From Candidatus Egerieisoma sp. (GTDB lineage: Bacteria > Bacteroidota > Bacteroidia > Bacteroidales > UBA932): DNA of 64,000 nucleotides. This document shows positions 8,782-43,061 of this stretch, piece after piece. The stretch spans positions 17,924-81,923 of the forward strand of contig JAZNXX010000003.1 in NCBI GenBank assembly GCA_045594125.1, written 5' to 3'. Position 1 is the stretch's first letter. Each line of letters opens with the position of its first letter. The position numbers were made by a program, and so were the translations under genes. Below the pieces are notes generated by a model that saw only the letters and a list, made by a program, of their open reading frames with translations, did no database searches and was not told the origin of the DNA.

Positions 8782-10896
8782 TTATGATATTTGTGAATAA
8801 TCTCTCTTTATCTTTCCATCTTTGCGCAGGATAGCGAGCTGTTGGAGAAGCAGCATATTTTCGCTCTTTTCAAGGAGCGGGTCATTGTCGAGGATACTCT
8901 GTGCCAGTCTCCTTGCATCTTCAAGAATATGGGTGTCCCTGCCGAGATTGGCTATGTGCAGGTCCATTGCAAGACCGCTCTGGCTTGTACCCTCAATATC
9001 TCCAGGCCCCCTCATCCTCAGGTCGGCCTCAGCCAGTTCAAAGCCATCCTGTGTCTGGCACATCAGGTCAATTCTCTGTCGGCTCTCATTGCTCATCTTG
9101 TAGCCTGTCATCAGTATACAGTAAGATTTCTCAGAACCTCTGCCAACCCTGCCCCTCAGCTGGTGGAGCTGGCTCAATCCAAATCTCTCGGCACTCTCAA
9201 TGACCATTACTGAGGCATTGGGTACATCCACCCCAACCTCAATGACAGATGTTGCAACAAGAATATGCGCTTTACCCTTTGCAAAAAGCTCCATATCGTG
9301 GGCTTTGTCCTCATTCTTCTGTTTGCCGTGGACAACTGCTGTAATGTAATCGGGTGCCCTGAACTCCTCTACGATGGCCTGATATCCCTCTTCGAGGTTC
9401 TTGTAGTCCATCTTTTCACTCTCCTTTATGAGCGGATAGACTACAAAGACCTGCCGTCCGGAATCTATCTGCTTTCTCATAAAGTCAAATATTCTTTTTC
9501 TCTGATGTTCAGATGCGTGTATTGTCTCTACGGGTTTACGTCCAGGTGGCAGTTCATCAATTACCGATACATCAAGGTCTCCAAAAAGTGTCATTGCCAA
9601 TGTTCTTGGAATGGGGGTTGCCGTCATTACAAGTATGTGTGGCAAAACCTCTGACTTGTTCCAGAGACGGGAACGTTGCTCTACACCAAAACGGTGCTGC
9701 TCATCTATAACAGCCAGTCCGAGACTGTTGAATTCTACATTCTCCTCAATCAGCGCGTGGGTGCCTACTATAATCTTCAAACTGCCCTCTTTCAGTTGCG
9801 CAAGTGTATTGCGCCTCTCTTTTGTCTTTGTGCTTCCTGTAAGCAGACCGACAGTTACACCTGTATTGGCAAGGAGCTTGTAGATGCCCTTAAAGTGTTG
9901 TTGTGCAAGCACTTCTGTTGGAGCCATTATACAGGCCTGGTATCCGTTGTCTACTGCAATAAGCGAGATTAGGAGGGCAACCATTGTCTTTCCGCTGCCC
10001 ACATCTCCCTGTAGGAGCCTGTTCATCTGTCTTCCGCTTATCATATCACTGCGCATCTCCTTTATCACCCTTTTCTGGGCTCCTGTAAGCGGAAAAGGGA
10101 GGGAGTTGTAGCAGCTGTTGAAGGCCTCCCCGACACGTTTCATTACAATTCCTCTCTCCTTCTTCATCCTGACAGCTTTCTGTTTGAGAAGACTGAGTTG
10201 CAGATAGAAGAGCTCCTCATATTTCAGTCGGGCCTGGGCCTGTTGCAATGCCACACTGTTCTCAGGAAAGTGGATACTCTTGAGAGCCTTCCGTAGTGGT
10301 ATGAGCCCTTTTCTCTCCAGGATATATTGGGGGAGAGTCTCCTCAACTCTCTGCAGGTACTTTTCGATCAGGGTCTGTTCCAGCTTTGAAAAGGCCTTGT
10401 TGCCCAGATTGCTGTTCTTTAATTTCTCCGTACTTGAGTAGACCCCCATCATAGTGCTACCTCCAAAGCAGAGGTCGGAGGTGGGGGAGGTCAGCTCCGG
10501 ATGGACCATATTGACCGTTCCGTTGAAGTCGGATGGCTTTCCGAAGGCAATATACTCCGAACCGACTGCCAGCTTCTCCTTTATCCACTTTATTCCCTTG
10601 AAGAAGACGAGATCGATTGAACCTGTCGCATCACGCATAGTGGCAACAAGCCTCTTGTTGGAGGGTTGGCTGCCGGCCATATTTATTGAGGTAATCTTTC
10701 CCCTTATCTGGATGTATGCCATTGTGGGAACCACTTCTGAAATGGTGTAGATGTGGCTTCTGTCGAGATATCTGAATGGGAAGAAGTAGAGTAAATCCCT
10801 AAAGGTGAAAATGCCGAGCTCCTTTGAGAGAAGCTCTCCCCTTTTGGGACCTATCCCCGGAAGATATTTGATATCTGAATCAAGAATATTTGCCAT
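8782..10896 (-). CDS. recG: ATP-dependent DNA helicase RecG
   Basis: 704 aa. The N-terminus 'YLPGIGPKRGELL' is followed by a wedge domain, 'LQGDVGSGKT', 'VIDEQHRFGV' and 'LHQLRGRVGRG'. Confidence 0.92.
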   Translation of the reverse strand: MANILDSDIKYLPGIGPKRGELLSKELGIFTFRDLLYFFPFRYLDRSHIYTISEVVPTMAYIQIRGKITSINMAGSQPSNKRLVATMRDATGSIDLVFFKGIKWIKEKLAVGSEYIAFGKPSDFNGTVNMVHPELTSPTSDLCFGGSTMMGVYSSTEKLKNSNLGNKAFSKLEQTLIEKYLQRVEETLPQYILERKGLIPLRKALKSIHFPENSVALQQAQARLKYEELFYLQLSLLKQKAVRMKKERGIVMKRVGEAFNSCYNSLPFPLTGAQKRVIKEMRSDMISGRQMNRLLQGDVGSGKTMVALLISLIAVDNGYQACIMAPTEVLAQQHFKGIYKLLANTGVTVGLLTGSTKTKERRNTLAQLKEGSLKIIVGTHALIEENVEFNSLGLAVIDEQHRFGVEQRSRLWNKSEVLPHILVMTATPIPRTLAMTLFGDLDVSVIDELPPGRKPVETIHASEHQRKRIFDFMRKQIDSGRQVFVVYPLIKESEKMDYKNLEEGYQAIVEEFRAPDYITAVVHGKQKNEDKAHDMELFAKGKAHILVATSVIEVGVDVPNASVMVIESAERFGLSQLHQLRGRVGRGSEKSYCILMTGYKMSNESRQRIDLMCQTQDGFELAEADLRMRGPGDIEGTSQSGLAMDLHIANLGRDTHILEDARRLAQSILDNDPLLEKSENMLLLQQLAILRKDGKIKRDYSQIS

Positions 10897-10956
10897 AATA
10901 CAAAGATATGAAAAAAAAGTTTTGTATATTGCGAGGTTTTAATTTTTATCGCAGTT

Positions 10957-12039
10957 ATGGCAAAAGTAAGAGTAGGTATCACTCAAGGTGATACCAATGG
11001 GATTGGATATGAGGTTATTATAAAAATGCTGTCTGACGCAAGGGTGTTGGATATGTGTACCCCAATTATATATGGATCATCAAAGGCTTTCGGTTTTTAC
11101 AGAAAACAGATTCCTGAGACCGAAAATATAAATACCAATGTGGTGTCATCTGCAAAAGATGCTCATCCAAAGAGAGTTAATATTGTAAACTGTATTCCTG
11201 AAAATTATCCGATAGAACCGGGCCAGCTGACCCAAGAGGGGTCGAAGGCGGCAATTGCCGCACTTGAAAGGGCGGTTGCAGAGCTTAAGGAGGGGATGAT
11301 TGATGTGCTCGTTACAGCCCCTTTCAACAAGAGGGCGGTAAATGAGGAGACCTTCAAGTTCCCCGGACATACAGAGTATCTTGTAAGCGAATTCGGGGCA
11401 ACTGACGGACTTATGTTCCTCTGTGCCGACAAGATGAGGGTGGGAGTGGCTACAAACCACCTTCCCATCTCAAAGGTTCCAGCTGCCATTACTGAGGAGA
11501 GGATCTTGAGCAAGTTGAGGCTTATGAACGAATCGCTCTTGAGGGATTTCAATATTGTAAAACCAAAATTGGCAGTGTTGGGGTTAAATCCCCATTCTGG
11601 AGATAGGGGCCTTTTGGGTGATGAGGAGATAAATATCATCGGACCGGCCATAAAGAAGGCAAAAGAGGAGGGAATTCTTGCATTTGGACCATATCCGCCT
11701 GACGGTTTTTTCAGTATCAATATGCAGTATAAATTTGATGCAGTGCTTGCAATGTACCACGACCAGGGACTTATTCCATTCAAGTCGCTTGCATTTGACG
11801 CCGGAGTAAACTTTACTGCGGGCCTTCCTATAGTGAGGACCTCTCCAGACCACGGAACTGCCTATGACCTTGCAGGTGAAAACAAGGCAAATCCGCAGTC
11901 AATGTATGCATCATTGTATCTGGCAATTGATGTCTACAACAACAGAAAGAGGTATGATGAGATGCATAAAAATCCGCTGCCTCTCAAGGAGACCGATACA
12001 ACACCGAAAGAGAGGGGCGGCAAGCCGGTAATTGCATAA
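10957..12039 (+). CDS. pdxA: 4-hydroxythreonine-4-phosphate dehydrogenase
   Basis: 360 aa with 'GDTNGIGYEVI', 'GHTEYL', 'LNPHSGD' and 'YHDQGLIPFK...RTSPDHGTA'. Confidence 0.9.
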   Translation: MAKVRVGITQGDTNGIGYEVIIKMLSDARVLDMCTPIIYGSSKAFGFYRKQIPETENINTNVVSSAKDAHPKRVNIVNCIPENYPIEPGQLTQEGSKAAIAALERAVAELKEGMIDVLVTAPFNKRAVNEETFKFPGHTEYLVSEFGATDGLMFLCADKMRVGVATNHLPISKVPAAITEERILSKLRLMNESLLRDFNIVKPKLAVLGLNPHSGDRGLLGDEEINIIGPAIKKAKEEGILAFGPYPPDGFFSINMQYKFDAVLAMYHDQGLIPFKSLAFDAGVNFTAGLPIVRTSPDHGTAYDLAGENKANPQSMYASLYLAIDVYNNRKRYDEMHKNPLPLKETDTTPKERGGKPVIA

Positions 12040-12066
12040 CCGGGTGAGGTTGTAGAGGAGAAATTT

Positions 12067-12531
12067 ATGGATGATTCTATCATATATCTCTATACTGACG
12101 GATCCAGCAGGGGAAATCCCGGACCTGGAGGCTATGGGGTTGTTCTGAAGTGCGGGAAGCACTACAAAGAGCTGTCGGAGGGTTATAGTTCCACTACAAA
12201 TAACAGGATGGAGCTGTTGGCTGTAATTGTGGGGCTTGAGGCGATAAAGAGGAAGAATGCAGTTGTGCATATATATAGCGACTCCTCCTATGTGGTCAAG
12301 GCCATCAATGAGGGTTGGCTCGATAAATGGTTGAAAAAAGGGCTTGAGAAGCAGAAAAATCCCGATTTGTGGCAACGTTTTGTTGCTGTATGGAAGAGAC
12401 ACAGAGTCTCATTTTTCTGGATAAAGGGCCACGCGGGCCATCCGGAGAATGAGAGGTGCGACAAACTCGCGGTGGAGGCAGCGCTCTCGGCTGATTTAAA
12501 AGAAGATAAAGGATATTGCGGCCAAAATTAA
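12067..12531 (+). CDS. rnhA: ribonuclease HI
   Basis: 154 aa with 'YTDGSSRGNPGPGGYG', 'TNNRMEL', 'DSSYV' and 'VKGHAGHPENERCDKLA'. Confidence 0.9.
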   Translation: MDDSIIYLYTDGSSRGNPGPGGYGVVLKCGKHYKELSEGYSSTTNNRMELLAVIVGLEAIKRKNAVVHIYSDSSYVVKAINEGWLDKWLKKGLEKQKNPDLWQRFVAVWKRHRVSFFWIKGHAGHPENERCDKLAVEAALSADLKEDKGYCGQN

Positions 12532-12556
12532 ATTCTTTATTGTAAGAATAATGATA

Positions 12557-12564
12557 TATCTTTG
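12557..12564 (+). promoter_or_regulatory. candidate -7 box (TAtcTTTG) upstream of gpsA
   Basis: Exact TAnnTTTG motif 41 nt upstream of the ATG. Confidence 0.35.
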
Positions 12565-12604
12565 TAAAGTTTGAGGTTTTATAACGGATATCGGATTAAA
12601 AACT

Positions 12605-13618
12605 ATGAAGACATTCTTTGAGAGAAAAAATCTGCGCTATGCAATGGTGGGTAGCGGAAGTTGGGCTACAGCGTTAATAAAACTATTGTTGAACCATCAG
12701 GAGTGTATAGGGTGGTACCTGAGGGATGAAAAGAAGATAGAGAGGATAAGGAAGACTGCCCACAATCCAAGCTATCTGCAGTCTGTCAATCTTGATCCAG
12801 ACAGGCTGAATATGAGTACAGATATTAATGAGGTGGTTGAGAATGCGGATGTGATACTGTTTTGTACACCATCTGCCTATTTTATGAAGACAATGTCCAA
12901 CCTTACAGTCTCATTGGAGAACAAATTCATAATCTCAGCCATTAAAGGTTTTGTTGATGAGAAGAATCTTACAATAGCAGAGTATTTCCACAAATTCCAT
13001 AACCTCCCGTTCGACAGGATTGGCGTAATAAGCGGACCTTGTCACGCAGAGGAGGTCTCAATGGAGCGTCTCTCATATCTGACTCTTACCAGCAAACATA
13101 TTGAAGTGGCAAGGGCTCTTTGTGATGTATTTGCCTGTGACTATATCAAGACTATGCCTGGAACAGATATCTATGGAGTGGAGTATTCGGCTGCCCTCAA
13201 GAATATCTACGCCATAGCTGCCGGAATATGCCACGGTTTGGGCTATGGTGACAACTTTATGGCGGTGCTTATGACAAATGCATATCACGAGATTGCGGAG
13301 TTCCTCAATGCTACCCATCCCGACAAGGACAGGGTTCTTACAACATCTGCATACCTTGGAGATCTGCTTGTGACCGGATACTCGCAGTTCAGCAGAAACA
13401 GGACATTCGGAAGTATGCTCGGCAAGGGATATTCGGTAATAAGTGCCCAGATGGAGATGAATATGGTTGCTGAGGGTTATTATGCTTCAAAATGCATCAA
13501 CGAGATAAACAAGGAGTACAGGATAGATATGCCGATAGCTGAGGCTGTCTATAAGATTTTGTACGAACAGAGATATCCTGCTTATGTAATTAAGCAGCTC
13601 ACAGACAAATTGTATTAA
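12605..13618 (+). CDS. gpsA: NAD(P)H-dependent glycerol-3-phosphate dehydrogenase
   Basis: 337 aa with 'GSGSWATAL', 'KGF...' and 'ALKNIYAIAAGI'. Confidence 0.88.
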   Translation: MKTFFERKNLRYAMVGSGSWATALIKLLLNHQECIGWYLRDEKKIERIRKTAHNPSYLQSVNLDPDRLNMSTDINEVVENADVILFCTPSAYFMKTMSNLTVSLENKFIISAIKGFVDEKNLTIAEYFHKFHNLPFDRIGVISGPCHAEEVSMERLSYLTLTSKHIEVARALCDVFACDYIKTMPGTDIYGVEYSAALKNIYAIAAGICHGLGYGDNFMAVLMTNAYHEIAEFLNATHPDKDRVLTTSAYLGDLLVTGYSQFSRNRTFGSMLGKGYSVISAQMEMNMVAEGYYASKCINEINKEYRIDMPIAEAVYKILYEQRYPAYVIKQLTDKLY

Positions 13619-17902: not shown

Positions 17903-20900
17903 ATGGAGAAACTGGTTAAAGTATATAAGGCGTCAGCCGGCTCGGGCAAGACTCATACACTTACAAATGAGTATATAGATATCATCTTGAAGGATGAACT
18001 TGCATATAAGCATCTGCTTGCAGTAACCTTCACCAACAAGGCTACTGATGAGATGAAGCAGAGGATCCTGAAAGAGCTGCACAAATTGGCCAATACTCCG
18101 GGTCAGAGAGGAGAGATGGCCAGAAGTGTACTTATCAGGATACTTCATGACTATTCGGCATTTGCTGTAAGTACAATTGACCGCTTCTTCCAGGGAATTA
18201 TGAGGGCCTTTGCAAGGGAACTCGGAAGGATGGTCACCTATAGCGTGGAACTTGATTCTGATATGGTGAGGATGGCTGCCATTGACAATATGTTTGCCAA
18301 TCTCGACAAGAAGGAGTATAAAAAGCTGTTGGAGTGGCTGATAGGTTTCTCTCTTGAGAGGATTGAAAATGGAGAATCCTGGAAGATAGAGGGTGAGATT
18401 TCCAAATTGTCGGAGAGCCTATTTTCTGAGAGTTTCAAGTTGAAGAACGGAGGCTTTTCATCCCAGTCGGTAGCTTTGGAATTGTCGGAGAGAATCTCCC
18501 GTATTTCGGAATTGAAGTCAAGGTTGCGGCAGATAAAAAAGGAGTTTGAAGGGGAGGCTTTTGCAATCTCCAAAAGGGCACTTGATATTATTGCAGGTGC
18601 AGGATTGGATGTGACAGATTTCAAAGGGGGCAAGAATGGAGCTATGAGAACATTCCAGTACCTTGCTTCGGGATTGAGGTTTGACCAGGAGCTCAAGGCT
18701 ACATTCCTTTCGTTGTATAATGCTCCGGAGTTGTGGTACCCGAAGAGCAGAAGCAAGGAGGCATATAAGTATGAAGAGGCCTCAAATGCAGGGCTGAATG
18801 GTGCAATAGGGGAGCTTATCTCGTTATATGACAGTAAATTGTCGCTCTATCTTACAGTTGGATATGTGGAGAGGAATCTCAACAGCCTCGGTATATTGGG
18901 CAGCATTTATGACCATATCCTGCAATATTGCAGGGAGAAAAATATTATACTTCTCTCCGAAACTACAGAGTTGCTGGGGAGAATAATAGATGGAAGTGAT
19001 ACTCCATTCATATATGAAAGGACCGGAACCTGGATAAACAACTTTATGTTGGATGAATTCCAGGATACCTCAACGATGCAGTGGAGAAATTTTGAACCGC
19101 TGCTCTCAAACAGTATTGCCAACGGAGATGTAAACCTTATTGTAGGAGATGTAAAACAGAGTATCTACAGGTTCCGTAATTCAAATTGGGAAATTCTCAA
19201 GAGCGGGATTGATGATGAGTTCGGTGATGCCGTCTTTCACGATAAGCTGAAATTCAATTGGCGAAGTGCCGCCAATATTGTCGATTTCAATAATGACTTC
19301 TTCAAATATGCAGCAAAAGCGGCCAAATTCATATATAATCCAATGTTTGCGCTGGCTGAGGGGGAATTCAGTGATGATGATCCGTTGAGCCGGCACTATT
19401 CGGGTGTAATAGAGGAGATATATAAGGATCTTGAACAGAAGCTGCCTGATGAAAAGAGTGGTGAAGATGGAGGATTTGTGGAGATTTCACTCTTCTGCAA
19501 GAGTGATATAAAGGATGGGGGATGGAACTATGATGAGGTTGTGAGGGCCTATCTGTTGAAGAGTGTTGCCCGCGTAATAAGGAATGGGTACCGGCAGAAA
19601 AAGATAGGTATTCTTGTAAGGAACAGATATCAGGGAAGTATGGTTGCCCAGTGGCTTATTGGGGAGGGGTATAGAGTGATCTCTTCAGATTCATTGCTAA
19701 TCTCTTCATCTGAGGCTGTGAATGGGGTTGTAAATATACTCAAATGGATAGAGGATCCCGACAATATCTCAATAAAGATATACTCAATACTTTCTAAGGG
19801 AAACTCAAAATTCCCGCTACCATCTCCTGAGGAGTGCGAGAGGTTGAAGGTTATGCCTCTCTACCAGATGTGTGAGGAGGTTATAAGGTGTCATCTCCCG
19901 GCAGAGCATAAGGAGGATATTGCCTTTTTACAGCTTTTCCTCGACCTTGTGCTGGATTTCAATGTAAAGAATGGAAGCAATCTTTCTGCCTTTCTCAAAT
20001 GGTGGGGTGAGGATGGATGCAGAAAATCCATCTCTTCACCGGAGGAGCAGGATGCCATTCAGGTTATGACTATCCATAAAGCCAAAGGTCTGGCATTTGA
20101 TGTGGTTATATTGCCATTTTTCAACTCTCCTCTCGACCATTATGCCAACAAGAGCCCTCTTTTGTGGAGCAATGCCCTCTCAAAGGTTGTCGGGTATGAT
20201 TCGCCTCTTCCTGTAAGATATGGTTCGGGATTGAAAAAGACACTCTTCAAGGAGGATTATTATCAGGAGAAGATGGAGGCCTTCATTGATAACCTCAACC
20301 TTGCTTATGTGGCCTTTACCCGTCCAAGGAGGGAGCTTATAATATTTGCAGAGACTCCCGACAGGGATAAATATGGAGACCCTAAGGAGGATTCTGCGGT
20401 TTCACACATTCTCACCTCTTATCTTGAACATATAGAGAAAAAGGAGGACTATAATATTGCAGTAAGAGAAAAGACTGCAGTTGTCGGTGATGAGAAGATT
20501 ACCTCCCTTACCTATACCATCGGGGAGCCGGCAAAGGCAAAGAGTGTGGATGAGGATGATTCAGGCTGGTTCAATCTGGGCAGCCATTTGTCGGAAGGTC
20601 TTGATTTGTCGAGAATCGCAACATCATTGCAGAGCGGATCTGTAAATGAGAATCTGACACTAAGAGACAAAGGTGTAATTATGCACGATATCTTTGCAGG
20701 AATCAGGAGCAAGGAGGATGTTTGCAGGATTCAGGATCCGCAGATGAGGGAAATTGTTTTGGAAAAGCTCGCTTTTGTTGAGGAGTACGGATGGTTTTCA
20801 GACAGTTATGATGTGTATAGGGAGTGCAGTATAATAACTGAAGATGGAACAATATACCGTCCGGACAGGATTCTTGTGAAGGATGGTTCGGCAATAGTCA

Positions 20901-28012: not shown

Positions 28013-29122
28013 ATGAAAAGAGACTTGATTAAAAATGGCAGTGTAAGAACTTTTGCAACATTTGCAATCTCAATGGCAATCCTGTTTGGAACTGCATCTT
28101 GTGACAAATCTGAAACTACGCTCCCTTATGAGCAGGAGGAGAGCATTGTGGAGAAGGAGTGTTCTTTCAGAATCTCCCTTGTGCCTCAGACAAGGGCAAC
28201 GGGTGCAGGACACGGAGTACAGTCGGATGACAACATTGTAAACAAAGTTGAATTCTTTATCTTCCGTAATGAGGGTGAGGATTCTGGAAACCTTGATACA
28301 TACAAGAAGATAGAGGGGGACGAGCTGGTCTCTCTTACAGATATCTCCATTACCAGTACAACCGGAGCCAAAAAGATTTATGTGGTTGCAAACTCCCATA
28401 TTACTGATTGGGGAAGCATCTCTACAATCAGCGACTTTGAGAGTAAAGTCTCAATGTTGAACAGCGAACAGATTAAAGATTTTACAATGATCGGAAATGC
28501 AGAAGTAACACTCCAGAGTGCAACGGATGTGACAATACCTATCTCCAGATTGGTAGCAAGGGTTCTGCTTTCAGGTATCAGTACCAATTTTGCAGGTACT
28601 CCGTATGAGGGAGAGGAGCTCTCGAATGTAAAGGTCTATCTGATCAATGCCAATGGAGAGAAGAGATACATTGACGGTGCGGATGATGCAACTCCTGTCA
28701 TCTTCAACAGCAAATCTGCGGTAGCAGACGATATCGCTTCGTTTGGGATGGCAAACTGCATTTATGATGAGATTACACAACCTGTCACCGACGCTGGTTA
28801 TACGACAGAACACTATTTCTACTGTTATGAGAATATGGCAGAAGAGGAGAATGATGATGTGAGCTTTACCCGATTGGTTGTCCAGGCTGATCTTTGCGGC
28901 ACAACCTACTATTATCCGGTAAATATAAACCGTGAAGGGTTCGGGCATACAGGTGAGAGCGACCACGCCGGAGTAAGAAGCAATACTTCATATAGCCTTA
29001 ATATAACAATAACCCGTCCGGGATCATTGGAGCCGGATGATATTCTTGAATATGGAGCACTCTCTGTAGATCTTAATGTAGCCGACTGGATTACCATACC
29101 TGTAGTAATGGTTAACTTTTAG
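28013..29122 (+). CDS. fimbrillin (FimA/Mfa1 superfamily, type V pilus stalk candidate)
   Basis: 369 aa with lipobox 'GTASC' and an Arg-containing pro-peptide site 'PQTRATG'. The motifs 'KIYVVAN' and 'RLVARV' are typical of fimbrillins. Confidence 0.6.
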   Translation: MKRDLIKNGSVRTFATFAISMAILFGTASCDKSETTLPYEQEESIVEKECSFRISLVPQTRATGAGHGVQSDDNIVNKVEFFIFRNEGEDSGNLDTYKKIEGDELVSLTDISITSTTGAKKIYVVANSHITDWGSISTISDFESKVSMLNSEQIKDFTMIGNAEVTLQSATDVTIPISRLVARVLLSGISTNFAGTPYEGEELSNVKVYLINANGEKRYIDGADDATPVIFNSKSAVADDIASFGMANCIYDEITQPVTDAGYTTEHYFYCYENMAEEENDDVSFTRLVVQADLCGTTYYYPVNINREGFGHTGESDHAGVRSNTSYSLNITITRPGSLEPDDILEYGALSVDLNVADWITIPVVMVNF

Positions 29123-29124
29123 AG

Positions 29125-29958
29125 ATGGGAAGATATATATTTTTGGCAGGAATAATATATATCGCAATAAGCTCATGCTCAACAATCAGAGAGGATAGAG
29201 ATGAATGTCCTTGCTGGAGTACTATAGATTTTTCTCAGGTAGACAGCTCTATATCCTCTCTTCATATATGGTTCCTGTCAGAAGATGATGAACTGTTGTT
29301 GAGAGACACATTGTTTCCGGATAATTACGGTATACCCTATAATGTTGAACTTGAGAGGGGCAAATTGCGGTATTATGTGTGGGGGAATATACGCTCCTGT
29401 ATGGAGCTCAATGATATTGGAAAGAGCTCCTCCACACTATTCAGGAGGGACAGTTCCGAAGCAGATTCCTTATTTTTCTACGGTAACTGTATAGATGCAG
29501 CGGGAGAATCCTGTTGTGATACAGTCATTGTCGGTAAGGAGCATATATGTGTGGAGGTTGTACTGCTCGGAGTAGCAGAGGAGATTGGCTTGCCTGTGTT
29601 GGAACTCTCCGGGGCTGCATCGGGTTACAGGATAGACCGTACCATTGTGGATGGTGAATCTCCCATAGTGGCTACCCCTGTTGTGGACAATTCTGGCAAC
29701 TACAGGTTCAATTTCGTTATGACACGCCAATCCTCAATGGAAAAAGTGGTTTTTTCACTCTTCTTCGAAAGGGAAGGCGGTGAGAGGATAGAGTCTGTGG
29801 AGGAGTATCCGTTGGGTAGGGTTATGGAGTCCTCAGGCTTTGATATGGAACGCAAGGATCTTGCGGATGTAAAGATAGTGATTGACACTTCGTTGGGGTT
29901 ATTTACCCTAAAATGTGAAGATTGGCATTCAGTTTCACCTATAAAGATTAGATTTTGA
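29125..29958 (+). CDS. FimB/Mfa2-like pilus anchor candidate
   Basis: 277 aa with lipobox 'AISSC'. Its size and its position 2 nt after the fimbrillin gene fit an anchor subunit. Confidence 0.5.
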   Translation: MGRYIFLAGIIYIAISSCSTIREDRDECPCWSTIDFSQVDSSISSLHIWFLSEDDELLLRDTLFPDNYGIPYNVELERGKLRYYVWGNIRSCMELNDIGKSSSTLFRRDSSEADSLFFYGNCIDAAGESCCDTVIVGKEHICVEVVLLGVAEEIGLPVLELSGAASGYRIDRTIVDGESPIVATPVVDNSGNYRFNFVMTRQSSMEKVVFSLFFEREGGERIESVEEYPLGRVMESSGFDMERKDLADVKIVIDTSLGLFTLKCEDWHSVSPIKIRF

Positions 29959-29959
29959 T

Positions 29960-32947
29960 ATGGAAAGAAGGTTCTCTTGTATGGTTGTGGCGCTTTGCCT
30001 TACCATAATAACCTCCTGTATACAGAGGGAGGAGGTAAATTATGAAGAGTCCGGAAGGGTTGGCAAGGAGTCACTGAAACTCAATTTCAAGTTCAATCTT
30101 GTTGAACAAAAGAGCCGGGCTGCAGTGGATGAGATTCTTGTCAGGGATGTGAATCTATACTTTGTAAATAGTGCAGGATATGTGGTGGAGTGGATATTTC
30201 ATCAATCAGGAGGAGAAATAGTTTGTGAGCTCATCAAGGAGCGTTCTTATACAGTATATGCTATAGCCAATGCAGGCTATAAAATTGAGGCAAGGAGCAG
30301 GGATGAGATTGAGAGGCTGGAGATTGCCTTTTCCCACAGCCTTGCCAATATGGAGGAGTATGGTGTACTGCTTATGTGCGGCAAGAGCAGTGAAGGAGTA
30401 TTGACGGATGGAGATATTGTAAATATCGACCTTCAGAGAGCTCTCTCCAAAATCGTACTCAAATGTGACTATTCGCAGTTGAACAGTGATGTAGAGATTG
30501 AGGTGAAAAGGGTTATGCTGAAAAATGTGCCGTCGGGAACACTGCTCTATGGACCCAACAGAATAGCCTCCAAAGAGGGGGTAACTGTAGGCAGAGAGGT
30601 GATAGAGCCGGCAAAAAGCGAACTCCAGGAGGGAATTGTTCTCTACCAGTTTGAAAATATGCAGGGTACACTTCTCGCCTCAAATAAGGATGAAACCCTC
30701 AAATTATGGCCAGAAGGCAGTCTCTACTCTGATATATGCAGCTACCTTGAAATGGAGGCGCAATACTCTTCAGCCAGAAAGGAGGGCAAGATACTCTACC
30801 GGTTCTATCTTGGAAAAGATATGACCTCCAATTTTGATGTGGAGAGGAATACCCAATATACCGTAAACCTTAACTTTCGTGGGGATGGTGCCGTGGATGA
30901 GAATAGCTGGAGGGTGGATAACAGCGAGATAGTCGATCTGGTCACCTCACTTGAACTTGCTCCCGATTACCATAAATTCTTCGGACTGGAAGGCTCGCTC
31001 CCGATAGTTGCCAGGATAATGCCGTTGACAGCAGCCAATAAAATTCTCCGGTGGCATACATCAGATGAATCTGTAGCCTCGGTAACAGATGAGGGAATAG
31101 TCTCTCCTGTTGGGTATGGCAACTGTAATATTGTTGCGGAGACCACAGACGGATCCGGTATACAGGCGATCTCCAGAATTGATGTGGTGGAGAAGATTCC
31201 CGTAGATACGATAATATTGAATCCTCCGTTTATGTTCATATTGCCGGAGTCGACATACCAGATGGAGGCGCTTATCTATCCTGAAGATGCCTCAATAAAA
31301 GATCTGATATGGACGAGTGCCGATACGACTGTTGCAACAGTTGATAGTAAAGGCCTGGTAAAGAGCATCAATGAAGGGGTCTCCATCATTATGGCAACAA
31401 GTGTTGATGATACTACAAAGTCAGGTATGGCCTATATGATTGTAAGTCCGCCTACTCTGGAGATATCTCCTGTTGAAATTACACTTTTTGTGGGAGAAAA
31501 GGCAAATCTCAACTACTCAATTTTCCCTTCAGCACCTATAAGGTTCGAATCAGAAGACAGCTCAATAGCTTCGGTTATGGAGAATGTCGGTGTAATAACA
31601 GCCCATTCACCGGGAAAAGTTAGAATCAAGGCAATGGCAAATGACATTGTAAAATATTGCGAAGTGACGGTAAGAGTTCCAGAAATTCAGTTTGCCGAAG
31701 AGCATATTGTAATGTATGATGGTGAGATACGGACTATCCCGATGTCAAAATATGAAGTATATAACAATGATATGTGGGTCAGCTTCTCCCCTGAAGGAAT
31801 CCTCGAAATAGAGAAGCAGATAGGCAGCAATCTGGAAGTTAAGGCTTTGAGGGAGGGCGTAGTTACAATAATTGCTGAGGTATACGACGGCAATACCACA
31901 ACCTGTGAAGTGACTGTGGAGAAGCTGCGGATTGTTCCAGATGAAGATGATGTGGTGACATACAAACATTTCTTTACCGATATAGGATACAAAATATATC
32001 CCGACCATGCAGCTGCTCTCCTGCCTGAATTGACAATCCCGGAAGGGGCCAAAAGTTATATAGTGCAGCCTGATTCCGAAAATTCACCTGCAAGGATTAT
32101 GGCGATAGGGGAGATGGAGACTCCTGTTCCGCTTACACTCTCTATAAGTGGACGTCAGGATGTATGTGCGACAATATATTGTACAGCCAAATCACCTTCA
32201 ATCAAGGAGAGGATAACGGCTGTGGTAAATATGGGCCATCAGCAGACTGTTGAGGAACTGTTGCTCGATTTGCCACCTCAGGCAGTGCCTGACTACACAA
32301 TTGAGGCCTCTCCCGCAAATAAAAATGGTACTCCTGGCGATGGAATTATAGTGGATCTTCCAAATTCAAGGGTGCTTTTTAACAATCCGTGTAGAGCAAA
32401 CGGGCTTTATAATCTCAAGGTCAGCTATGTGGGTGATGACGGTTATTGTTCAAACAATGAGCTTGTCTGCGATATAGAGGTCTATGAAACGATCTATCTT
32501 GTAGGGGTAAGCAAGACCGACAACACCAGCAAACTCTCCTCCAATCCCGATATATACAGGTACCAGAATGAGATTATGGGCGTATGGCTTGCCCATCCAA
32601 ACTCCCTCTTTTACCAGGATGGAATAGTGGAGGACCTCGGATTAAGTTATATATATGATGGAGAGGTATATACAGATTCCCATACAGGAGTCTACAAGGA
32701 GTATGAATTTACATTTCTGCAGGATGAATATTATCAGTATGCACTTGATGAAGGGGCATTTATCTACAATGGAAAGAACAGGCCCCTATATTATCACGAA
32801 TATTTTGCCCTTAAACCAGGGTTGAGCACTCCATATCATATCTCCAGCAATGGAAACTACCATTATATCTATTCAAGGCAGTTCATGTCTGGATTTTCAA
32901 ACCTTGATTCTCCAGATTGGGATAAGATATTTGATTATGTATACTAA
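29960..32947 (+). CDS. large fimbrillin-like lipoprotein with tandem Big_2 (bacterial Ig-like) domains
   Basis: 995 aa with lipobox 'IITSC' and an N-terminal fimbrillin-like segment ('VNLYFVN', 'YTVYAIANA'). At least four Big_2-like repeats are present, e.g. 'VASVTDEGIVSPVGYGNCNIVAET' and 'VATVDSKGLVKSINEGVSIIMATS'. Confidence 0.65.
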   Translation: MERRFSCMVVALCLTIITSCIQREEVNYEESGRVGKESLKLNFKFNLVEQKSRAAVDEILVRDVNLYFVNSAGYVVEWIFHQSGGEIVCELIKERSYTVYAIANAGYKIEARSRDEIERLEIAFSHSLANMEEYGVLLMCGKSSEGVLTDGDIVNIDLQRALSKIVLKCDYSQLNSDVEIEVKRVMLKNVPSGTLLYGPNRIASKEGVTVGREVIEPAKSELQEGIVLYQFENMQGTLLASNKDETLKLWPEGSLYSDICSYLEMEAQYSSARKEGKILYRFYLGKDMTSNFDVERNTQYTVNLNFRGDGAVDENSWRVDNSEIVDLVTSLELAPDYHKFFGLEGSLPIVARIMPLTAANKILRWHTSDESVASVTDEGIVSPVGYGNCNIVAETTDGSGIQAISRIDVVEKIPVDTIILNPPFMFILPESTYQMEALIYPEDASIKDLIWTSADTTVATVDSKGLVKSINEGVSIIMATSVDDTTKSGMAYMIVSPPTLEISPVEITLFVGEKANLNYSIFPSAPIRFESEDSSIASVMENVGVITAHSPGKVRIKAMANDIVKYCEVTVRVPEIQFAEEHIVMYDGEIRTIPMSKYEVYNNDMWVSFSPEGILEIEKQIGSNLEVKALREGVVTIIAEVYDGNTTTCEVTVEKLRIVPDEDDVVTYKHFFTDIGYKIYPDHAAALLPELTIPEGAKSYIVQPDSENSPARIMAIGEMETPVPLTLSISGRQDVCATIYCTAKSPSIKERITAVVNMGHQQTVEELLLDLPPQAVPDYTIEASPANKNGTPGDGIIVDLPNSRVLFNNPCRANGLYNLKVSYVGDDGYCSNNELVCDIEVYETIYLVGVSKTDNTSKLSSNPDIYRYQNEIMGVWLAHPNSLFYQDGIVEDLGLSYIYDGEVYTDSHTGVYKEYEFTFLQDEYYQYALDEGAFIYNGKNRPLYYHEYFALKPGLSTPYHISSNGNYHYIYSRQFMSGFSNLDSPDWDKIFDYVY

Positions 32948-37710: not shown

Positions 37711-37778
37711 CAGCGTAAATTTACCCTTTTGCAAGGCTTTTATGTTGAAATTCGCAAATATTGCATCAAAAATGCGAT

Positions 37779-39071
37779 ATGAAGAATTGTTCCAATTTTA
37801 TCTCTCTGGCACTGCTGTCAATACAGCTGATTGCCCTCTCATGCAGCAAGGATTTTGCCGATATAAAAACAGATTCCGGAAGCTCAGGAACTCTCCCGTT
37901 AAGGGATACTCTTCGGACGGTCGGTTATTTAGGCATTATAACTCTTAATGAGCTGGCGGTTAATGATACGGACCTTCTCTGGAGTGTGATTGAGGGTGAG
38001 GAGTGTGTGACCCTTACCGATTCTGTCATTATTGGAAGAAGAAAGGGCAGTGCTCTGCTGAAAGCCGCTTCTGGTAGCCTGGCAGGGCATATCAGAGTTG
38101 AGGTTACCGGTGAAAACTACATCCCTGTAGAGAATCTTCTGTTTGAAGTCAATGGAAGGGAGTCTCTCTCCGGGGATACACTGCTCCTTCAGAGCTGTGA
38201 TTGGGTTGGCCTTCTTCTGAAAGGGGTAAAGCCCGATAGTGCATCGCATCCGGCTATAAAGTCATTCAAGGCACTGTCTACACACTCTACCGGTGAACCT
38301 GATGAAGAGGGAAGCGCACTTTTTATGCGCAGTGTTATGGGGCTTGAAGAGGAGGAGATCAAGCTGCTCTCCCAAATACCATCACCGCTAAAATTGGGAT
38401 TCAGGGTCTATCCTTTTGTAAACCACTTTATCTTTATCGACAACAATCCGGATATCCACACCGATGACAGGCTCATTCCTGCTGACTCCATCCCAAGTAT
38501 GCTTCTTGAGTATGAACAGGAGATATATCCCGAGGGTTTAAGACTCTCGGAATGGGACCTATGGCAACTCGGAAAATATTTTACACGTGATGAGATATCT
38601 GTGAACAGAACCAGACACAGACTCTATTTTACAGATCTTGACAATTCTATAGAGATATGTAGGGAACAGAGGGGAAGCTATACGGGCATCTTTATAAAAT
38701 CAGGCGAAGAGCTGGAACTGGAGTGCAGTTTAAATGTGCCGGAGGAGTTTGAAAGTGGACTTTATTGGGCGGACGGTGTTTTTGAGGTTCACTCCAAATC
38801 ACTTGGAGAGGTCTATTCATTCGGAAACTATGCAAATAATGGCGGTAAACTTAAAATAAGCAGTTCAGGCCGTCTTTCACTTGACAGCTCTTTTTCAATT
38901 GATGGCAAGGATACCGCATATATCGGTACAGTATCTGCAATCCTGCTGCCTGATGACTGCAAAGAGTATTCTGCCCTCCATTTAAAGTATGAAGACCAGA
39001 ATTTCAATAAATGGATAGAGGAAATCTGCGGTATAAAAAACAGTGTGAAAATATATTGGATAAGAGATTAG
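37779..39071 (+). CDS. hypothetical lipoprotein with N-terminal Ig-like (Big_2-like) domain
   Basis: The start was moved to MKNCSNFISLALLSIQLIALSC, which gives a lipobox. The segment 'LLWSVIEGEECVTLTDSVIIGRRKGSALLKA' is Big_2-like. The rest is unassigned. Confidence 0.55.
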   Translation: MKNCSNFISLALLSIQLIALSCSKDFADIKTDSGSSGTLPLRDTLRTVGYLGIITLNELAVNDTDLLWSVIEGEECVTLTDSVIIGRRKGSALLKAASGSLAGHIRVEVTGENYIPVENLLFEVNGRESLSGDTLLLQSCDWVGLLLKGVKPDSASHPAIKSFKALSTHSTGEPDEEGSALFMRSVMGLEEEEIKLLSQIPSPLKLGFRVYPFVNHFIFIDNNPDIHTDDRLIPADSIPSMLLEYEQEIYPEGLRLSEWDLWQLGKYFTRDEISVNRTRHRLYFTDLDNSIEICREQRGSYTGIFIKSGEELELECSLNVPEEFESGLYWADGVFEVHSKSLGEVYSFGNYANNGGKLKISSSGRLSLDSSFSIDGKDTAYIGTVSAILLPDDCKEYSALHLKYEDQNFNKWIEEICGIKNSVKIYWIRD

Positions 39072-39300: not shown

Positions 39301-41160
39301 ATGATTCTGACACTGAATACTAAATTTGAGGGATATACTCCGGTGCAGATGCTTGGCAAGAGTACTTCATACAGGGAGGTGTATCTGGCGAAGGACTGCT
39401 GGGAACTGGATGTTGTTCTTACGGTATATGATATGAACAAATTGCCTGAGTGCTTTACAGATGGAAAGATTCCTGAGTTTGAAGTTATCCCACTATTGAA
39501 AAATGAAGTTTTTCCTGCATACTCTGATTGTGGCGACTATAACAATGGTGGTGTTTCATTACGGTGGATGGTAACAAAATATGTTGGTAGCACTACATTG
39601 ACTGAGTACATAAATTCAGATTGTCTCTACAATGAACGGGAGATGCTGCGCCAATTCTATAACTTGTTAGTTGCTGTTAAGGAACTTTCATTGCGTATGG
39701 GTGGAGGTTGTTGCAATAATATTTCTACGGATAATATTATTGTCTCGATGACTCCATCTGGAGAGATAAAGTGGTACCTGGTAGGGCTTAATTGCGTCTC
39801 TGGGACCTGTAATGGCCGTGCAACATTTGATACTAGTGTGCCATCTCTCATCTTTCGTGCCCCCGAAACATTGGTTGGACACTATAATGTCAGAACTGAT
39901 ATCTTCTCATTAGGCATTGTACTTGCGATTATTCTGCAAGGCAAACACCCTTGGGATGATTTTGTGAGAACAAATTCCGGGTTTCCGATAACTGCTATTG
40001 TAAAGTTGATGCGGGAAAATCCACCTGTATTATCCCATTCTGATGCACTAAATATTATCATAGCCAAAGCAATTGCAACTAAACCCTCTGAGAGATATAG
40101 GACTATTGAGGATATTGCTTTTGCTATAGCAAAATATCTTGGAGATGAGAAATTGAAGGGTTTTGAATGCTTTGCTCCTGAACACTCAAAACCTGTTTCA
40201 AGACTTTTCGAACATAAAACTGAAGAGGAGGTGCCAGTTGATAGTATGATACAACAAGCTCTTTCGCAACCAAAGTCCAATGTCCGGATTGAACGGGTTA
40301 AGGGCAATGGTTTCAAGGATGTGGCAGGTATGAAACAACTTAAAACTCTGCTGTCACGTAACTTTGTGGATATTGTCCAGAATCGCTGGCTGGCAGCACA
40401 ATTCCAGATTACTCCCCCGAACGGTACCTTATTGTGGGGGCCTCCGGGAACCGGCAAGACATTCATCTCACGCAAGCTTGCGGAGGAGAGCGGAATGTTA
40501 TTCAGTCTTATCAAGCCCAGCGATTTGGGTAATATCTATATCCACGGTTCGCAGAGTATGATTGCAGACCTCTTTACCCGCAGTGAGGAGCTGGCTGCCA
40601 AAAATAACTGTGGTGTTCTGCTGGTATTTGATGAGTTTGACAGCCTTGTGCCAAAGCGAGACGCCAATAAGGATAATAATCAGGCAAATGAGGTGGCAGA
40701 GTTCCTTACAAGGCTTAACGATTGTGCCGAAAAAAATGTCTATGTTGTTGCCACTACCAACCGTATTGACGCTATTGACCCAGCCATTATCCGCAAGGGA
40801 CGTATGGATGAGGTGATATATGTAGGACTTCCTGATGAAGAGGCCCGCAAGGAACTCTTGGAGCTGGAGCTGCTAAAACGTCCGCACGAAGATATAGACA
40901 CTGCCCGGATAGTAGAACTGACCAAAGGTTACTCATCAAGCGATATAAGTTTTATTGTAAAGGAGTGTGCGAGATGTTCATTTGATGAGAGTATCAAATC
41001 AAGGCATTTGGTAAAGATAAACCAGTCTCTGCTTGAGAAGACAATAGCCGGAACAAGACCTTCAGTGACTGAAGAGGAACTACGCCGCTTTGAACGGATT
41101 AAAGAATCGTTCACAAGAGAACATAAAAGGGAGCCGCTCAGAATAGGTTTTGTAAAATAG
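39301..41160 (+). CDS. protein-kinase-like (predicted catalytically inactive) domain fused to a classic-clade AAA+ ATPase
   Basis: 619 aa. The N-terminal half keeps kinase subdomains VIII/IX ('FRAPETL', 'TDIFSLGIVLAIIL.GKHPW'), but HRD is 'CNN' and DFG is 'LVG'. The C-terminal half has 'DVAGM', Walker A 'GPPGTGKT', Walker B 'LLVFDEFD', sensor-1 'VVATTN' and 'PAIIRKGRMD'. Confidence 0.8.
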   Translation: MILTLNTKFEGYTPVQMLGKSTSYREVYLAKDCWELDVVLTVYDMNKLPECFTDGKIPEFEVIPLLKNEVFPAYSDCGDYNNGGVSLRWMVTKYVGSTTLTEYINSDCLYNEREMLRQFYNLLVAVKELSLRMGGGCCNNISTDNIIVSMTPSGEIKWYLVGLNCVSGTCNGRATFDTSVPSLIFRAPETLVGHYNVRTDIFSLGIVLAIILQGKHPWDDFVRTNSGFPITAIVKLMRENPPVLSHSDALNIIIAKAIATKPSERYRTIEDIAFAIAKYLGDEKLKGFECFAPEHSKPVSRLFEHKTEEEVPVDSMIQQALSQPKSNVRIERVKGNGFKDVAGMKQLKTLLSRNFVDIVQNRWLAAQFQITPPNGTLLWGPPGTGKTFISRKLAEESGMLFSLIKPSDLGNIYIHGSQSMIADLFTRSEELAAKNNCGVLLVFDEFDSLVPKRDANKDNNQANEVAEFLTRLNDCAEKNVYVVATTNRIDAIDPAIIRKGRMDEVIYVGLPDEEARKELLELELLKRPHEDIDTARIVELTKGYSSSDISFIVKECARCSFDESIKSRHLVKINQSLLEKTIAGTRPSVTEEELRRFERIKESFTREHKREPLRIGFVK

Positions 41161-41220
41161 CTGATAGATATTCTGGGATATGGCACTCTATAATTATTGA
41201 ATAAATCACAAATTAATATT

Positions 41221-41712
41221 ATGAACCAGAAAGAGATTATAATTGACGAACTGAAGGCGATGGGTTTTGAGCCTGTCGAATTGGACGATATAGGCTATCG
41301 CTTCAAGTACGATGGGGTGAATTATCTATATGCGCCTAACGAAAATGATGAACAGTTTTTACGCATCGTTATCCCTAATCTGCAAGAGGTAACGGATGAG
41401 AATAGAGTAGCGGTGCTGGAGGCTATGCAAGAAACCAATTTGATGCTGAAGTATGCAAAGGTTTGCATTTTGTATGGGGATAGTGTATGGGCAATTTATG
41501 AGCATCGTTTTGATTCCACTGAGAATTTGACAGATTTGATGGAGCACATTATCAGTGTTCTTAATACAACTCAGCGGGTCTTCTACAAAATGATGAATGG
41601 TGAAGAGGTCGTTGGATCTCCAAAGAAGAGTGATGATTACTCTGACGATGCCATAGAGGCAGAATTGCAGAAGAGGCTTGATAGCATTGGGGATAGTGAG
41701 GAATATAACTAA
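41221..41712 (+). CDS. small acidic protein, YbjN/T3SS-chaperone-like fold suspected
   Basis: 163 aa from the ATG at 41221; the track starts at the TTG at 41197. The pattern 'IIDELKAMGFEPVELDD.GYRFKYDG..YLY....DEQFLRIVI' resembles YbjN-family topology. It is a paralogue of the next ORF. Confidence 0.6.
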   Translation: MNQKEIIIDELKAMGFEPVELDDIGYRFKYDGVNYLYAPNENDEQFLRIVIPNLQEVTDENRVAVLEAMQETNLMLKYAKVCILYGDSVWAIYEHRFDSTENLTDLMEHIISVLNTTQRVFYKMMNGEEVVGSPKKSDDYSDDAIEAELQKRLDSIGDSEEYN

Positions 41713-41723
41713 AAAATAGTGAT

Positions 41724-42107
41724 ATGAATACATATGAACTGGCAAAAAAATTTATAGCTGGACAGCGATACCGGGTATGTTACGAAGAGTGTTCGGAAGG
41801 TTGCATTGTTTTCCGTTACCAGATGAATACAATGCATATCTTCGTAAACACTGAAGATGAACACTTCTTATTTATGACATTGCTGAATTTTACAGATGTA
41901 ACTAAGGAGAATTTAGAACAGGTTGAGGAAAACTGCCATCAGTTAAACAAAGAGACAAAACTCGTAAAATTTTATGTTATGAACGATATGATTTTGGCAA
42001 CAGTGGAGGCATATTACCTCGCCGAAGAGGATTTCAATTTTCAGATGATGAATGCTCTAAAGCATCTTGTAGAGGCAAAAGTAATGTATAAAAAGTTGTA
42101 CGAATAG
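41724..42107 (+). CDS. small protein, paralogue of 41221-41712 (YbjN-like suspected)
   Basis: 127 aa, 11 nt downstream of the previous gene. 'FRYQMNTMHIFVNTEDEHFLFMTLLNFTDVTKENLEQVEE' aligns with 'YRFKYDGVNYLYAPNENDEQFLRIVIPNLQEVTDENRVAVLE'. Confidence 0.6.
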   Translation: MNTYELAKKFIAGQRYRVCYEECSEGCIVFRYQMNTMHIFVNTEDEHFLFMTLLNFTDVTKENLEQVEENCHQLNKETKLVKFYVMNDMILATVEAYYLAEEDFNFQMMNALKHLVEAKVMYKKLYE

Positions 42108-42181: not shown

Positions 42182-42358
42182 ATGATTATGAAAAAGGTGA
42201 AAGAAGTACGAGGACTAAAATGTCCAAACCACGATTATGTAAGGGATAACTACCATTTCTTGTATGAGGAGGCATATTTGGGCGCAAAACCTCTGCCGAG
42301 TACAAGATGTATAAAGTGTGGCTATACAATGTCATTGCACAAGGCTCAGAAGTATTAA
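42182..42358 (+). CDS. 58-aa zinc-ribbon-like miniprotein (not in the ORF track)
   Basis: My own translation is MIMKKVKEVRGLKCPNHDYVRDNYHFLYEEAYLGAKPLPSTRCIKCGYTMSLHKAQKY*. It has a CPxH...CxxC arrangement and is co-directional within the cassette. Confidence 0.4.
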   Translation: MIMKKVKEVRGLKCPNHDYVRDNYHFLYEEAYLGAKPLPSTRCIKCGYTMSLHKAQKY

Positions 42359-42386
42359 TCAAATTATAAAACTAAACTATAACAAT

Positions 42387-43061
42387 ATGACAAAGATCTG
42401 TTTCCCAAATTATAATAAAGGTGAGTTTGCATCGTTGGCCGACGCATTGAAATTTATGCGCCGTAATGACAACTTCGTTTCAAGATATGCATTGTGCAAT
42501 ATTGTGCAATACAATATCTGCTACCGGAATCACCTGCGTCAATACGGTATTGACAGCTTGATTTTCAGGCTTCTTGATGAGGCGCCTAAGTTGAAGCAAG
42601 AGAGGGTGCTGCTTTATTATTTGCGTAAATGGGCAAAAGATGAAAAACTTGCTGATTATGATATCCAGTGTTATAATATAAAAGATAAAGTAACCATTCT
42701 AGGGCATACATTTAATGGCCTTGAAGATATTAGTGAACACTTTGAACTATATACCAGGGATGGTTATGGCGCTATGCACCATCTGTTTTCGGTGGAAGAC
42801 AGAGAGTACGACGATATACATATAGGCCATTTTTTTGAAAACTATCCAATTTTTGACAGCTCGGATCTAAGTGATGACCGCACCTATCAGAACTACATCT
42901 TTCGTTCCAATCCTATTACTGAAAGTGATATGCAGGAGGCCTTCAATGTATTCCACGGCTTTAATTTCTGCAGAGTGCACGAAAATATTCCGGTTGAGAC
43001 TCTGCCCATTCTCTACTATAACGGGAATGGTAAGTATATGCTGCTGGCAACAAAAAGATGA
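42387..43061 (+). CDS. hypothetical protein (orphan, 224 aa)
   Basis: The ATG at 42387 is preferred over the GTG at 42318, which would overlap the miniprotein ORF. No recognisable motif. Confidence 0.55.
   Translation: MTKICFPNYNKGEFASLADALKFMRRNDNFVSRYALCNIVQYNICYRNHLRQYGIDSLIFRLLDEAPKLKQERVLLYYLRKWAKDEKLADYDIQCYNIKDKVTILGHTFNGLEDISEHFELYTRDGYGAMHHLFSVEDREYDDIHIGHFFENYPIFDSSDLSDDRTYQNYIFRSNPITESDMQEAFNVFHGFNFCRVHENIPVETLPILYYNGNGKYMLLATKR

Follow-up and report, generated by a model that had tools for sequence, protein, structure and literature searches.

Seven families of bacterial Ser/Thr pseudokinases have been catalogued in a 2025 review (ActPs1-3, GLW, CP1, DYD and DLHK), which makes no mention of Bacteroidota; all seven are of unknown function, and bacterial pseudokinases have been little studied experimentally (PMC12599244). 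Here we describe a gene of Candidatus Egerieisoma sp. (Bacteroidales) that, as judged from its sequence, encodes a pseudokinase joined to an AAA+ ATPase. It lies on a 64,000-nucleotide stretch of DNA, hereafter the window (positions 17,924 to 81,923 of the forward strand of contig JAZNXX010000003.1, assembly GCA_045594125.1), in which it occupies positions 39301..41160 (+). With the catalogued families, the predicted protein shares a Hanks-type fold in which all three catalytic motifs are degraded, a state said to be relatively common in prokaryotes (PMC12599244). CP1 is likewise fused to a predicted ATPase (PMC12599244), but its partner is COG3899 and not PF00004, the review speaking of a predicted ATPase only. 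A PF00004 AAA+ fusion is not among the features described for any of the seven, the comparison being made by description and not with family profiles. GLW differs in being a membrane protein in which HRD is replaced with GLW, a motif absent from the window protein. EssB is a membrane protein that acts beside a separate ATPase, EssC. The dead kinase fold of EssB/YukC, from type VIIb secretion, has a non-catalytic role (PMC12599244) and provides a likeness to our protein by analogy only. In the searchable literature we found no description of a pseudokinase-AAA+ architecture.

The open reading frame (ORF) of 619 residues consists of a kinase-fold domain, a linker and one classical AAA+ module, an arrangement supported by the ORF list, by Pfam (Pkinase, AAA and AAA_lid_3) and by full-length homologues of the fusion, which are 40-82% identical to it. 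The Hanks-type domain comprises residues 1-285 (39301..40155, +), as delimited with hhalign, AlphaFold2 and Foldseek; a preliminary description of this DNA had correctly placed it within positions 39301..40170, that is residues 1-290. It matches PF00069 (E 1e-10; 41.9 bits, the cut-off being 31.7), its best match in a phmmer search of the PDB is PknB (E 3e-8), and when a profile of 38 family sequences was aligned with 49 canonical kinases hhalign returned a probability of 100% (E 4.8e-40).

The preliminary description had aligned this domain by eye to the Hanks subdomains and had read all three catalytic residues as lost. Every peptide it quoted is found in the translation: LGKSTSYREVYLAK (residues 18-31), VVLTVY (38-43), GGGCCNNISTDNIIV (134-148), IKWYLVGLNC (156-165), FRAPETL (185-191), TDIFSLGIVL (199-208) and GKHPW (214-218). 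We checked the register in three ways, by phmmer/HMMER alignment to PknB, by MAFFT alignment of 114 full-length homologues together with PknB, and by hhalign, and all three reproduced the by-eye assignment. The beta3 Lys of the VAIK motif is replaced with Thr41 (39421..39423, +), which falls on PknB Lys40 with HMMER, MAFFT and hhalign alike; across class B, the class that supplied the 38 sequences used below for conservation, this position is Thr, Ile or Val. In the catalytic loop, HRDxKxxN is replaced with Cys138-Asn139-Asn140-Ile-Ser-Thr-Asp-Asn145 (39712..39735, +): HRD is lost, as Cys138-Asn139-Asn140 stands on PknB His136-Arg137-Asp138, the Lys has become Ser142 (PknB Lys140), and the Asn is kept as Asn145 (PknB Asn143). 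The change of His into Cys, which had been listed among the losses, is true of the window protein but not of most of the family, which retains His ('GGSHNN' or 'GGGHYN'); Cys-Cys in the HRD region is peculiar to the window protein and its nearest relatives. The DFG-equivalent stretch, Leu160-Val161-Gly162-Leu163-Asn164 (39778..39792, +), carries no acidic residue. By hhalign, Leu160-Val161-Gly162 stands on PknB Asp156-Phe157-Gly158, as had been proposed, whereas a family-internal alignment puts the 'IDLGH' of active-looking members on Gly162-Leu163-Asn164, a shift of two residues. The DFG Asp is absent in both registers, because the stretch between Glu155 and Asp177 (residues 156-176) is free of Asp and Glu. 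As for the Gly-rich loop (39352..39393 with beta2, +), the first Gly of GxGxxG alone is left, and the MAFFT alignment contains relatives lacking even that one. By contrast, the skeleton of the C-lobe (39853..39954, +) is preserved, with APE (FRAPETL), subdomain IX (TDIFSLGIVL) and GKHPW; Asp200 of subdomain IX and Arg265 of subdomain XI are also kept.

Under every alignment method used, the VAIK Lys, the HRD Asp and the DFG Asp are all three missing, and a mis-registered Lys/Asp/Asp triad, for which we looked by profile-profile alignment, was not found at equivalent positions. That the losses are nothing but misregistration and that the domain is an ordinary active Ser/Thr kinase appears highly improbable to us. 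By-eye alignment does carry this risk in general, and the register around DFG leaves two residues of play; however, the three independent alignments concur, no acid occurs in residues 156-176, the position of the HRD Asp is an invariant Asn, and active-looking relatives show what the intact form of the family is, namely Lys, HND and DLG. When pseudokinase is defined by sequence, as a kinase domain in which at least one of the three motifs is missing, the N-terminal domain qualifies: the motifs are lost while the fold is kept and conserved.

The fold was examined on an AlphaFold2 model of residues 1-305 built from the 38-sequence alignment. The model has a mean predicted local distance difference test (pLDDT) value of 88 and a predicted template modelling score of 0.87, with strands and helices in the expected order. 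It is bilobal, and a Foldseek search of the PDB returned protein kinases for all of the first 50 matches, with PknB domains at the head (E 1e-15, template modelling scores of 0.69-0.79), in agreement with the earlier proposal that the kinase fold is retained. The model ends in the linker (residues 286-335; 40156..40305, +; delimited from AlphaFold2 and the family consensus), which contains a conserved FECF motif and whose residues 289-305 have pLDDT values below 50. Conservation was measured on 38 class-B sequences that are 28-73% identical over the kinase-like domain. Tyr24, Arg25, Tyr43, Glu59, Leu100, Asn140, Glu189, Ile253 and Arg265 are invariant in them; among the substituted positions, Asn140, which takes the place of the HRD Asp, is thus found in all 38. 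Comparison with an 82%-identical orthologue gave a ratio of non-synonymous to synonymous substitution rates (dN/dS) of about 0.12 in the kinase-like part, as against 0.04 in the AAA+ part; both values are rough since dS is near saturation. Given this ratio and the invariance of Asn140, Glu59, Glu189 and Arg265, the kinase-like domain is constrained and under purifying selection, and is not decaying.

One of the invariant residues raises another possibility. Arg25 in beta2 (39373..39375, +) is common to all members of the degenerate class, and the active-looking members lack it; of 61 fusions, 43 carry this Arg without the beta3 Lys, 14 carry the Lys without the Arg, and there is one with both and three with neither. 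A profile alignment places Arg25 squarely on Lys233 of WNK1 ('SYREVY' against 'SFKTVY'; the WNK1 sequence was verified against PDB 5w7t), which we take to be the relocated catalytic Lys of the 'with-no-lysine' kinases. The likeness is that the third Gly of the Gly-rich loop has become a basic residue, which stands in for the missing beta3 Lys. The domain might therefore not be inert: it could bind a nucleotide or another small ligand through Arg25 and Glu59, the alphaC Glu (39475..39477, +), paired as WNK Lys233 is, and act as an allosteric sensor gating the AAA+ ring or carry out a non-canonical reaction. This would fit the invariance of both residues in the 38 relatives, the near mutual exclusion of Arg25 and the beta3 Lys, and the cleft residues of the N-lobe (Tyr24, Glu26, Val42, Tyr43 and Pro49), which are as conserved as the structural core. 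WNKs, however, are active and keep HRD and DLG, whereas the window protein has neither Asp, has lost the Gly-rich loop and carries an Arg in place of a Lys. Moreover, Asn145, at the metal-binding position, is not strictly kept (Thr in 13 of the 61 fusions), the Arg/Lys pattern may reflect a single inherited event and not repeated covariation, and pseudokinases degraded in all three motifs are nearly always devoid of ATP binding (PMC12599244). We regard such a ligand-binding role as unlikely.

We then considered the motor to which the pseudokinase is attached. Classical AAA+ proteins such as Cdc48, VAT, PAN and FtsH thread polypeptides through hexameric rings and choose their substrates or adaptors by means of N-terminal domains. 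Residues 336-619 of the fusion (40306..41157, +) match the D2 modules of Cdc48, p97 and VAT in the PDB with phmmer E values of 1e-69 to 4e-72 (Cdc48, 6chs, 4e-72; p97, 1e-71), and match PF00004 (E 1e-27) together with its lid (AAA_lid_3). This module had been described as fully intact, and indeed it possesses Walker A (GPPGTGKT, residues 380-387; 40438..40461), a pore loop (YIHG, residues 413-416; 40531..40554), Walker B (VFDEFD; 40618..40641), sensor-1 (Asn487; 40744..40761) and the Arg fingers Arg498 and Arg501 (40786..40809), all on the + strand. Across 57 fusions there is little or no variation in GPPGTGKT, in Asp444-Glu445 of Walker B, in Asn487, Arg498 and Arg501, or in the pore-loop residues His415-Gly416; in the pore-loop consensus, 'IYIHGSQ', Tyr413 represents what the majority of sequences have. 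The score against TIGR01243, the CDC48 family proper, is 141.5 bits for a cut-off of 802.65. By sequence, the motor is a single classical AAA+ module that resembles Cdc48/p97 D2 and lies outside the CDC48 family proper. It shares with Cdc48, p97 and VAT the ATPase motifs, the aromatic pore loop and the C-terminal lid, and, in our proposal, an N-terminal recognition domain atop a threading ring; it differs from them in having one AAA+ module and not two, and in that a kinase fold replaces their double-psi-barrel N-domain. A long antisense ORF within the region coding for the AAA+ part (39882..40514, -), which recurs in 19 loci, overlaps the most conserved coding stretch of the gene and is most simply a shadow ORF and no gene.

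How widespread is this architecture? When 1.8 billion cluster representatives were searched exhaustively with the N-terminal domain, 70 matched at E<=1e-10; of the 150 best representatives (clustered at 50% identity), 54 are kinase-AAA+ fusions of 574-703 residues. The fusion occurs in 13 GTDB species genomes and is seen in many gut-metagenome assemblies of Bacteroidales. Its closest genomic relatives, 49-85% identical over the best segment, belong to metagenome-assembled Alistipes, Bacteroidaceae, Prevotella and other Bacteroidales, and the genomes of several relatives are named after sheep or roe-deer gut samples. Two other searches yielded less: a word-indexed search with the N-domain as sole query brought up nothing beyond close relatives and fragments, and a metagenome scan with the family alignment picked up generic AAA+ patterns, so that most of its hits were unrelated AAA+ genes and only loci L035-L037 and L039 were kinase fusions. 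The combination had been called unusual for bacteria; it is in fact absent from the literature and curated libraries searched, but it is too widespread for the word to hold without qualification. The NCBI name of one relative is simply 'ATP-binding protein'. The 90%-identity cluster of the closest homologue (P0001) has 1006 members, but its size is unusable, as it holds many unrelated proteins of 415 residues; judging from their length and from a C-terminal motif in common, these may belong to a family of about 420 residues encoded upstream of the fusion elsewhere. The cluster looks chimeric, and we drew no abundance estimate from it. Altogether, the fusion looks like an undescribed yet fairly widespread family of bacterial pseudokinases and not like a one-off.

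The family falls into two classes. About 12 of 61 fusions are active-looking, with the beta3 Lys, an HND...N catalytic loop and DLG or DFG, whereas 44 of the 61 have Asn at the position of the catalytic Asp and lack the DFG Asp. As far as sequence can tell, the catalytic losses are thus a trait of the family. In a neighbour-joining tree of the AAA+ domain only, the active-looking fusions are basal and the degenerate ones form one large clade with few exceptions. Because the Lys/Asp/Asp members are basal on this tree, the dead state appears to derive from an active ancestor; the tree, rooted at the midpoint and bearing no support values, is only indicative. The active-looking fusions (for example L013, L035, L036 and L037; P0157, P0166 and P0191) have the same architecture (574-640 residues, 24-34% identity) and share with the window protein the distinctive AAA+ subfamily with its 'IYIHGSQ' pore loop. 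They differ from it in keeping the beta3 Lys, HND/HNE...N and DLG/DFG, in lacking Arg25, and in having no YbjN pair of the kind described below. Three of them are found instead in another conserved operon (L013, 3422..8183; L035, 4658..10127; L037, 813..5580), in which a Hsp70-like protein of about 835 residues is encoded directly upstream of the fusion and a small protein downstream, a TerB (PF05099) in L013 and L037 and a protein matching no family in L035. We found no description of this Hsp70-like/kinase-AAA+ operon. A separate clade, L006-L012 (for example L007, 6001..7857; 49% identity), reads 'LVDLDC' where the window protein reads 'LVGLNC': acidic residues are back near the DFG position and the catalytic Asp is still Asn.

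Two short genes follow the fusion. Within the type-III-chaperone fold, YbjN-type proteins form the branch that is most common and least understood, and both genes bear a likeness to them. The first starts 37-60 nucleotides past the fusion and encodes 163-171 residues; its start may be the ATG that gives 163 residues (41221..41712, +) or a TTG at 41197. The second, of 127 residues (41724..42107, +), starts 12 nucleotides later and is YbjN/TY-Chap1-like. The two are paralogous by jackhmmer, and an acidic low-complexity C-terminal tail is always present on the first and never on the second. PF10722 is matched with 18.3-18.5 bits by the first paralogue and with 23.3 bits by the second (cut-off 22), which also has a weaker PF22551 match; among 21 family members, weak matches (E<0.1) occur to PF10722 in 11 and to PF22551 in eight. 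No YbjN or CesT structure was found by sequence when the family profile was compared with the PDB. The trio is kept in 17 loci, the most divergent at about 40% identity, amid flanking genes that differ between loci. In one locus (L036; 29% identity) a single YbjN-like gene also follows an active-looking kinase-AAA+ fusion, which suggests that the association predates the catalytic losses. YbjN shares its dimeric fold with the class I chaperones of type III secretion, which hold partly unfolded clients, and has itself been proposed to act as a protein stabiliser (review PMC13466201).

Taken together, these data are best explained, and we think probably so, if the N-terminal 285 residues are a true pseudokinase that serves as the recognition domain of a Cdc48-like unfoldase. 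The ancestor would have been an active non-RD kinase already fused to a Cdc48-D2-like AAA+ module. The protein would assemble into a hexameric ring whose Tyr-bearing pore loop threads polypeptides, and the dead kinase domains would be the N-terminal recognition domains of this ring, as the N-domains are for Cdc48 and VAT. We infer that the protein forms hexamers and unfolds proteins, that the pseudokinase serves in recognition, and that it is physically linked to the YbjN-like pair. The parts of the kinase that are kept are the region holding the peptide substrate (APE/P+1 region and alphaF scaffold) and the conserved cleft. The N-domain would then be a binding or scaffold module rather than an enzyme, as the preliminary description had suggested. 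Since the YbjN fold is a fold of client-holding chaperones, the two presumably co-transcribed YbjN-like paralogues are obvious candidates for an adaptor or client-holder; they would be the most likely partners, perhaps as a heterodimer, and the acidic tail of the first could dock on the kinase-like cleft or start the threading. Pushed further, and here our confidence is low, the trio may constitute an unrecognised protein-remodelling machine of Bacteroidales, in which the dead kinase domain is a pseudo-substrate receptor for the acidic tail and clients are passed to the Cdc48-like ring, the active-kinase ancestor having phosphorylated the same partner; in such a machine the WNK-like Arg25-Glu59 pair would perhaps sense nucleotide. 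Three points weigh against the recognition-domain proposal in one part or another. The invariant cleft formed by Arg25, Glu59 and Asn140 could bind a nucleotide or another ligand, so that the role of the domain may not be purely non-catalytic; the YbjN assignment is based on weak Pfam scores, the second paralogue alone passing the gathering cut-off; and the L006-L012 clade has the fusion solo, without YbjN-like neighbours, so that the partnership is not obligatory.

We also considered that the three-gene unit might be an anti-phage or conflict system, with an IetA-like AAA+ protein whose kinase-like domain would be an inactive sensor or a decoy for a phage protein. In PADLOC, the AAA+ part indeed matches IetA best (E 9e-24) and the N-domain the PD-T4-6 and MkoA kinases (8e-14 and 1e-10), but these matches reflect generic AAA+ and kinase similarity, and with the NCBIfam IteA model (NF042959) the score is 78.8 bits for a cut-off of 510. 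MoxR-vWA conflict systems are known to use inactive kinase domains as effector modules (PMC7159879), and elsewhere the unit lies among variable genes (two HExxH proteins, SpoVK-like AAA+, SIR2, WG-repeat, dynamin-like GTPase). In the window, on the other hand, its flanks are housekeeping genes, and no IetS-like (subtilisin-like) protease gene adjoins the fusion. The conserved neighbours match no PADLOC model; more generally, no model of PADLOC, PHROGs or NCBIfam was matched at family level by the fusion, the YbjN-like genes or these neighbours. There are no relatives of the fusion in IMG/VR and only generic AAA+ matches in the phage records searched, hence no sign of a phage origin. A defence role is in our opinion decidedly unlikely, and we retain the pseudokinase as a recognition domain of the AAA+ ring.

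In the window, the trio is located between short-chain dehydrogenase genes and an esterase gene. The 436-residue ORF directly upstream (37761..39071, with a lipoprotein-like signal) was left outside the unit, as no homologue of it adjoins any relative. Downstream of the second YbjN-like gene, a previously unlisted 58-residue ORF (42182..42358, +) with a CPNH...CIKC pattern resembles a small zinc ribbon. Within it falls the GTG start of the next listed gene (42318..43061, +; 247 residues), which more likely starts at the ATG at 42387 and encodes 224 residues. The product of this gene matches no family in any library. In the orthologous Alistipes locus (L001), it has two paralogues (10857..11654 and 12051..12752; 45-49% identity) some 2-4 kb downstream of the trio, and it may be loosely associated with the unit. 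Farther away in the window, a FimA-type fimbrial cluster (28013..32947, +), made of P_gingi_FimA/FimA4_C genes followed by one for a 995-residue DUF4906 and Big_2 protein, supports the Bacteroidales origin of the DNA.

In many other genomes, the trio is preceded by a larger conserved set of genes (L001, 51..5988; also L003, L011, L115, L119, L122 and L123). It encodes a SpoVK/CbbX-like AAA+ protein (AAA and AAA_lid_6), a DUF1232-like protein, two paralogous HExxH (zincin-like) proteins of about 245 residues, a family of about 450 residues without any match and the family of about 420 residues mentioned above, whose C-terminus, judged by eye, looks like a sigma-70 region-4-like helix-turn-helix; WG-repeat proteins are encoded nearby. 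The 450- and 420-residue families, the two HExxH proteins, the SpoVK-like AAA+ protein and the DUF1232-like protein are absent from the whole window.

Since the dead kinase fold is here tied to a well-understood motor, its role may be read as ATPase or unfolding activity, and the family thus represents a compact, soluble pseudokinase case whose candidate partners are encoded next to it. Its active sister proteins allow direct comparison as well as 'resurrection' mutagenesis. Finally, the system would give YbjN-type proteins a concrete functional context.

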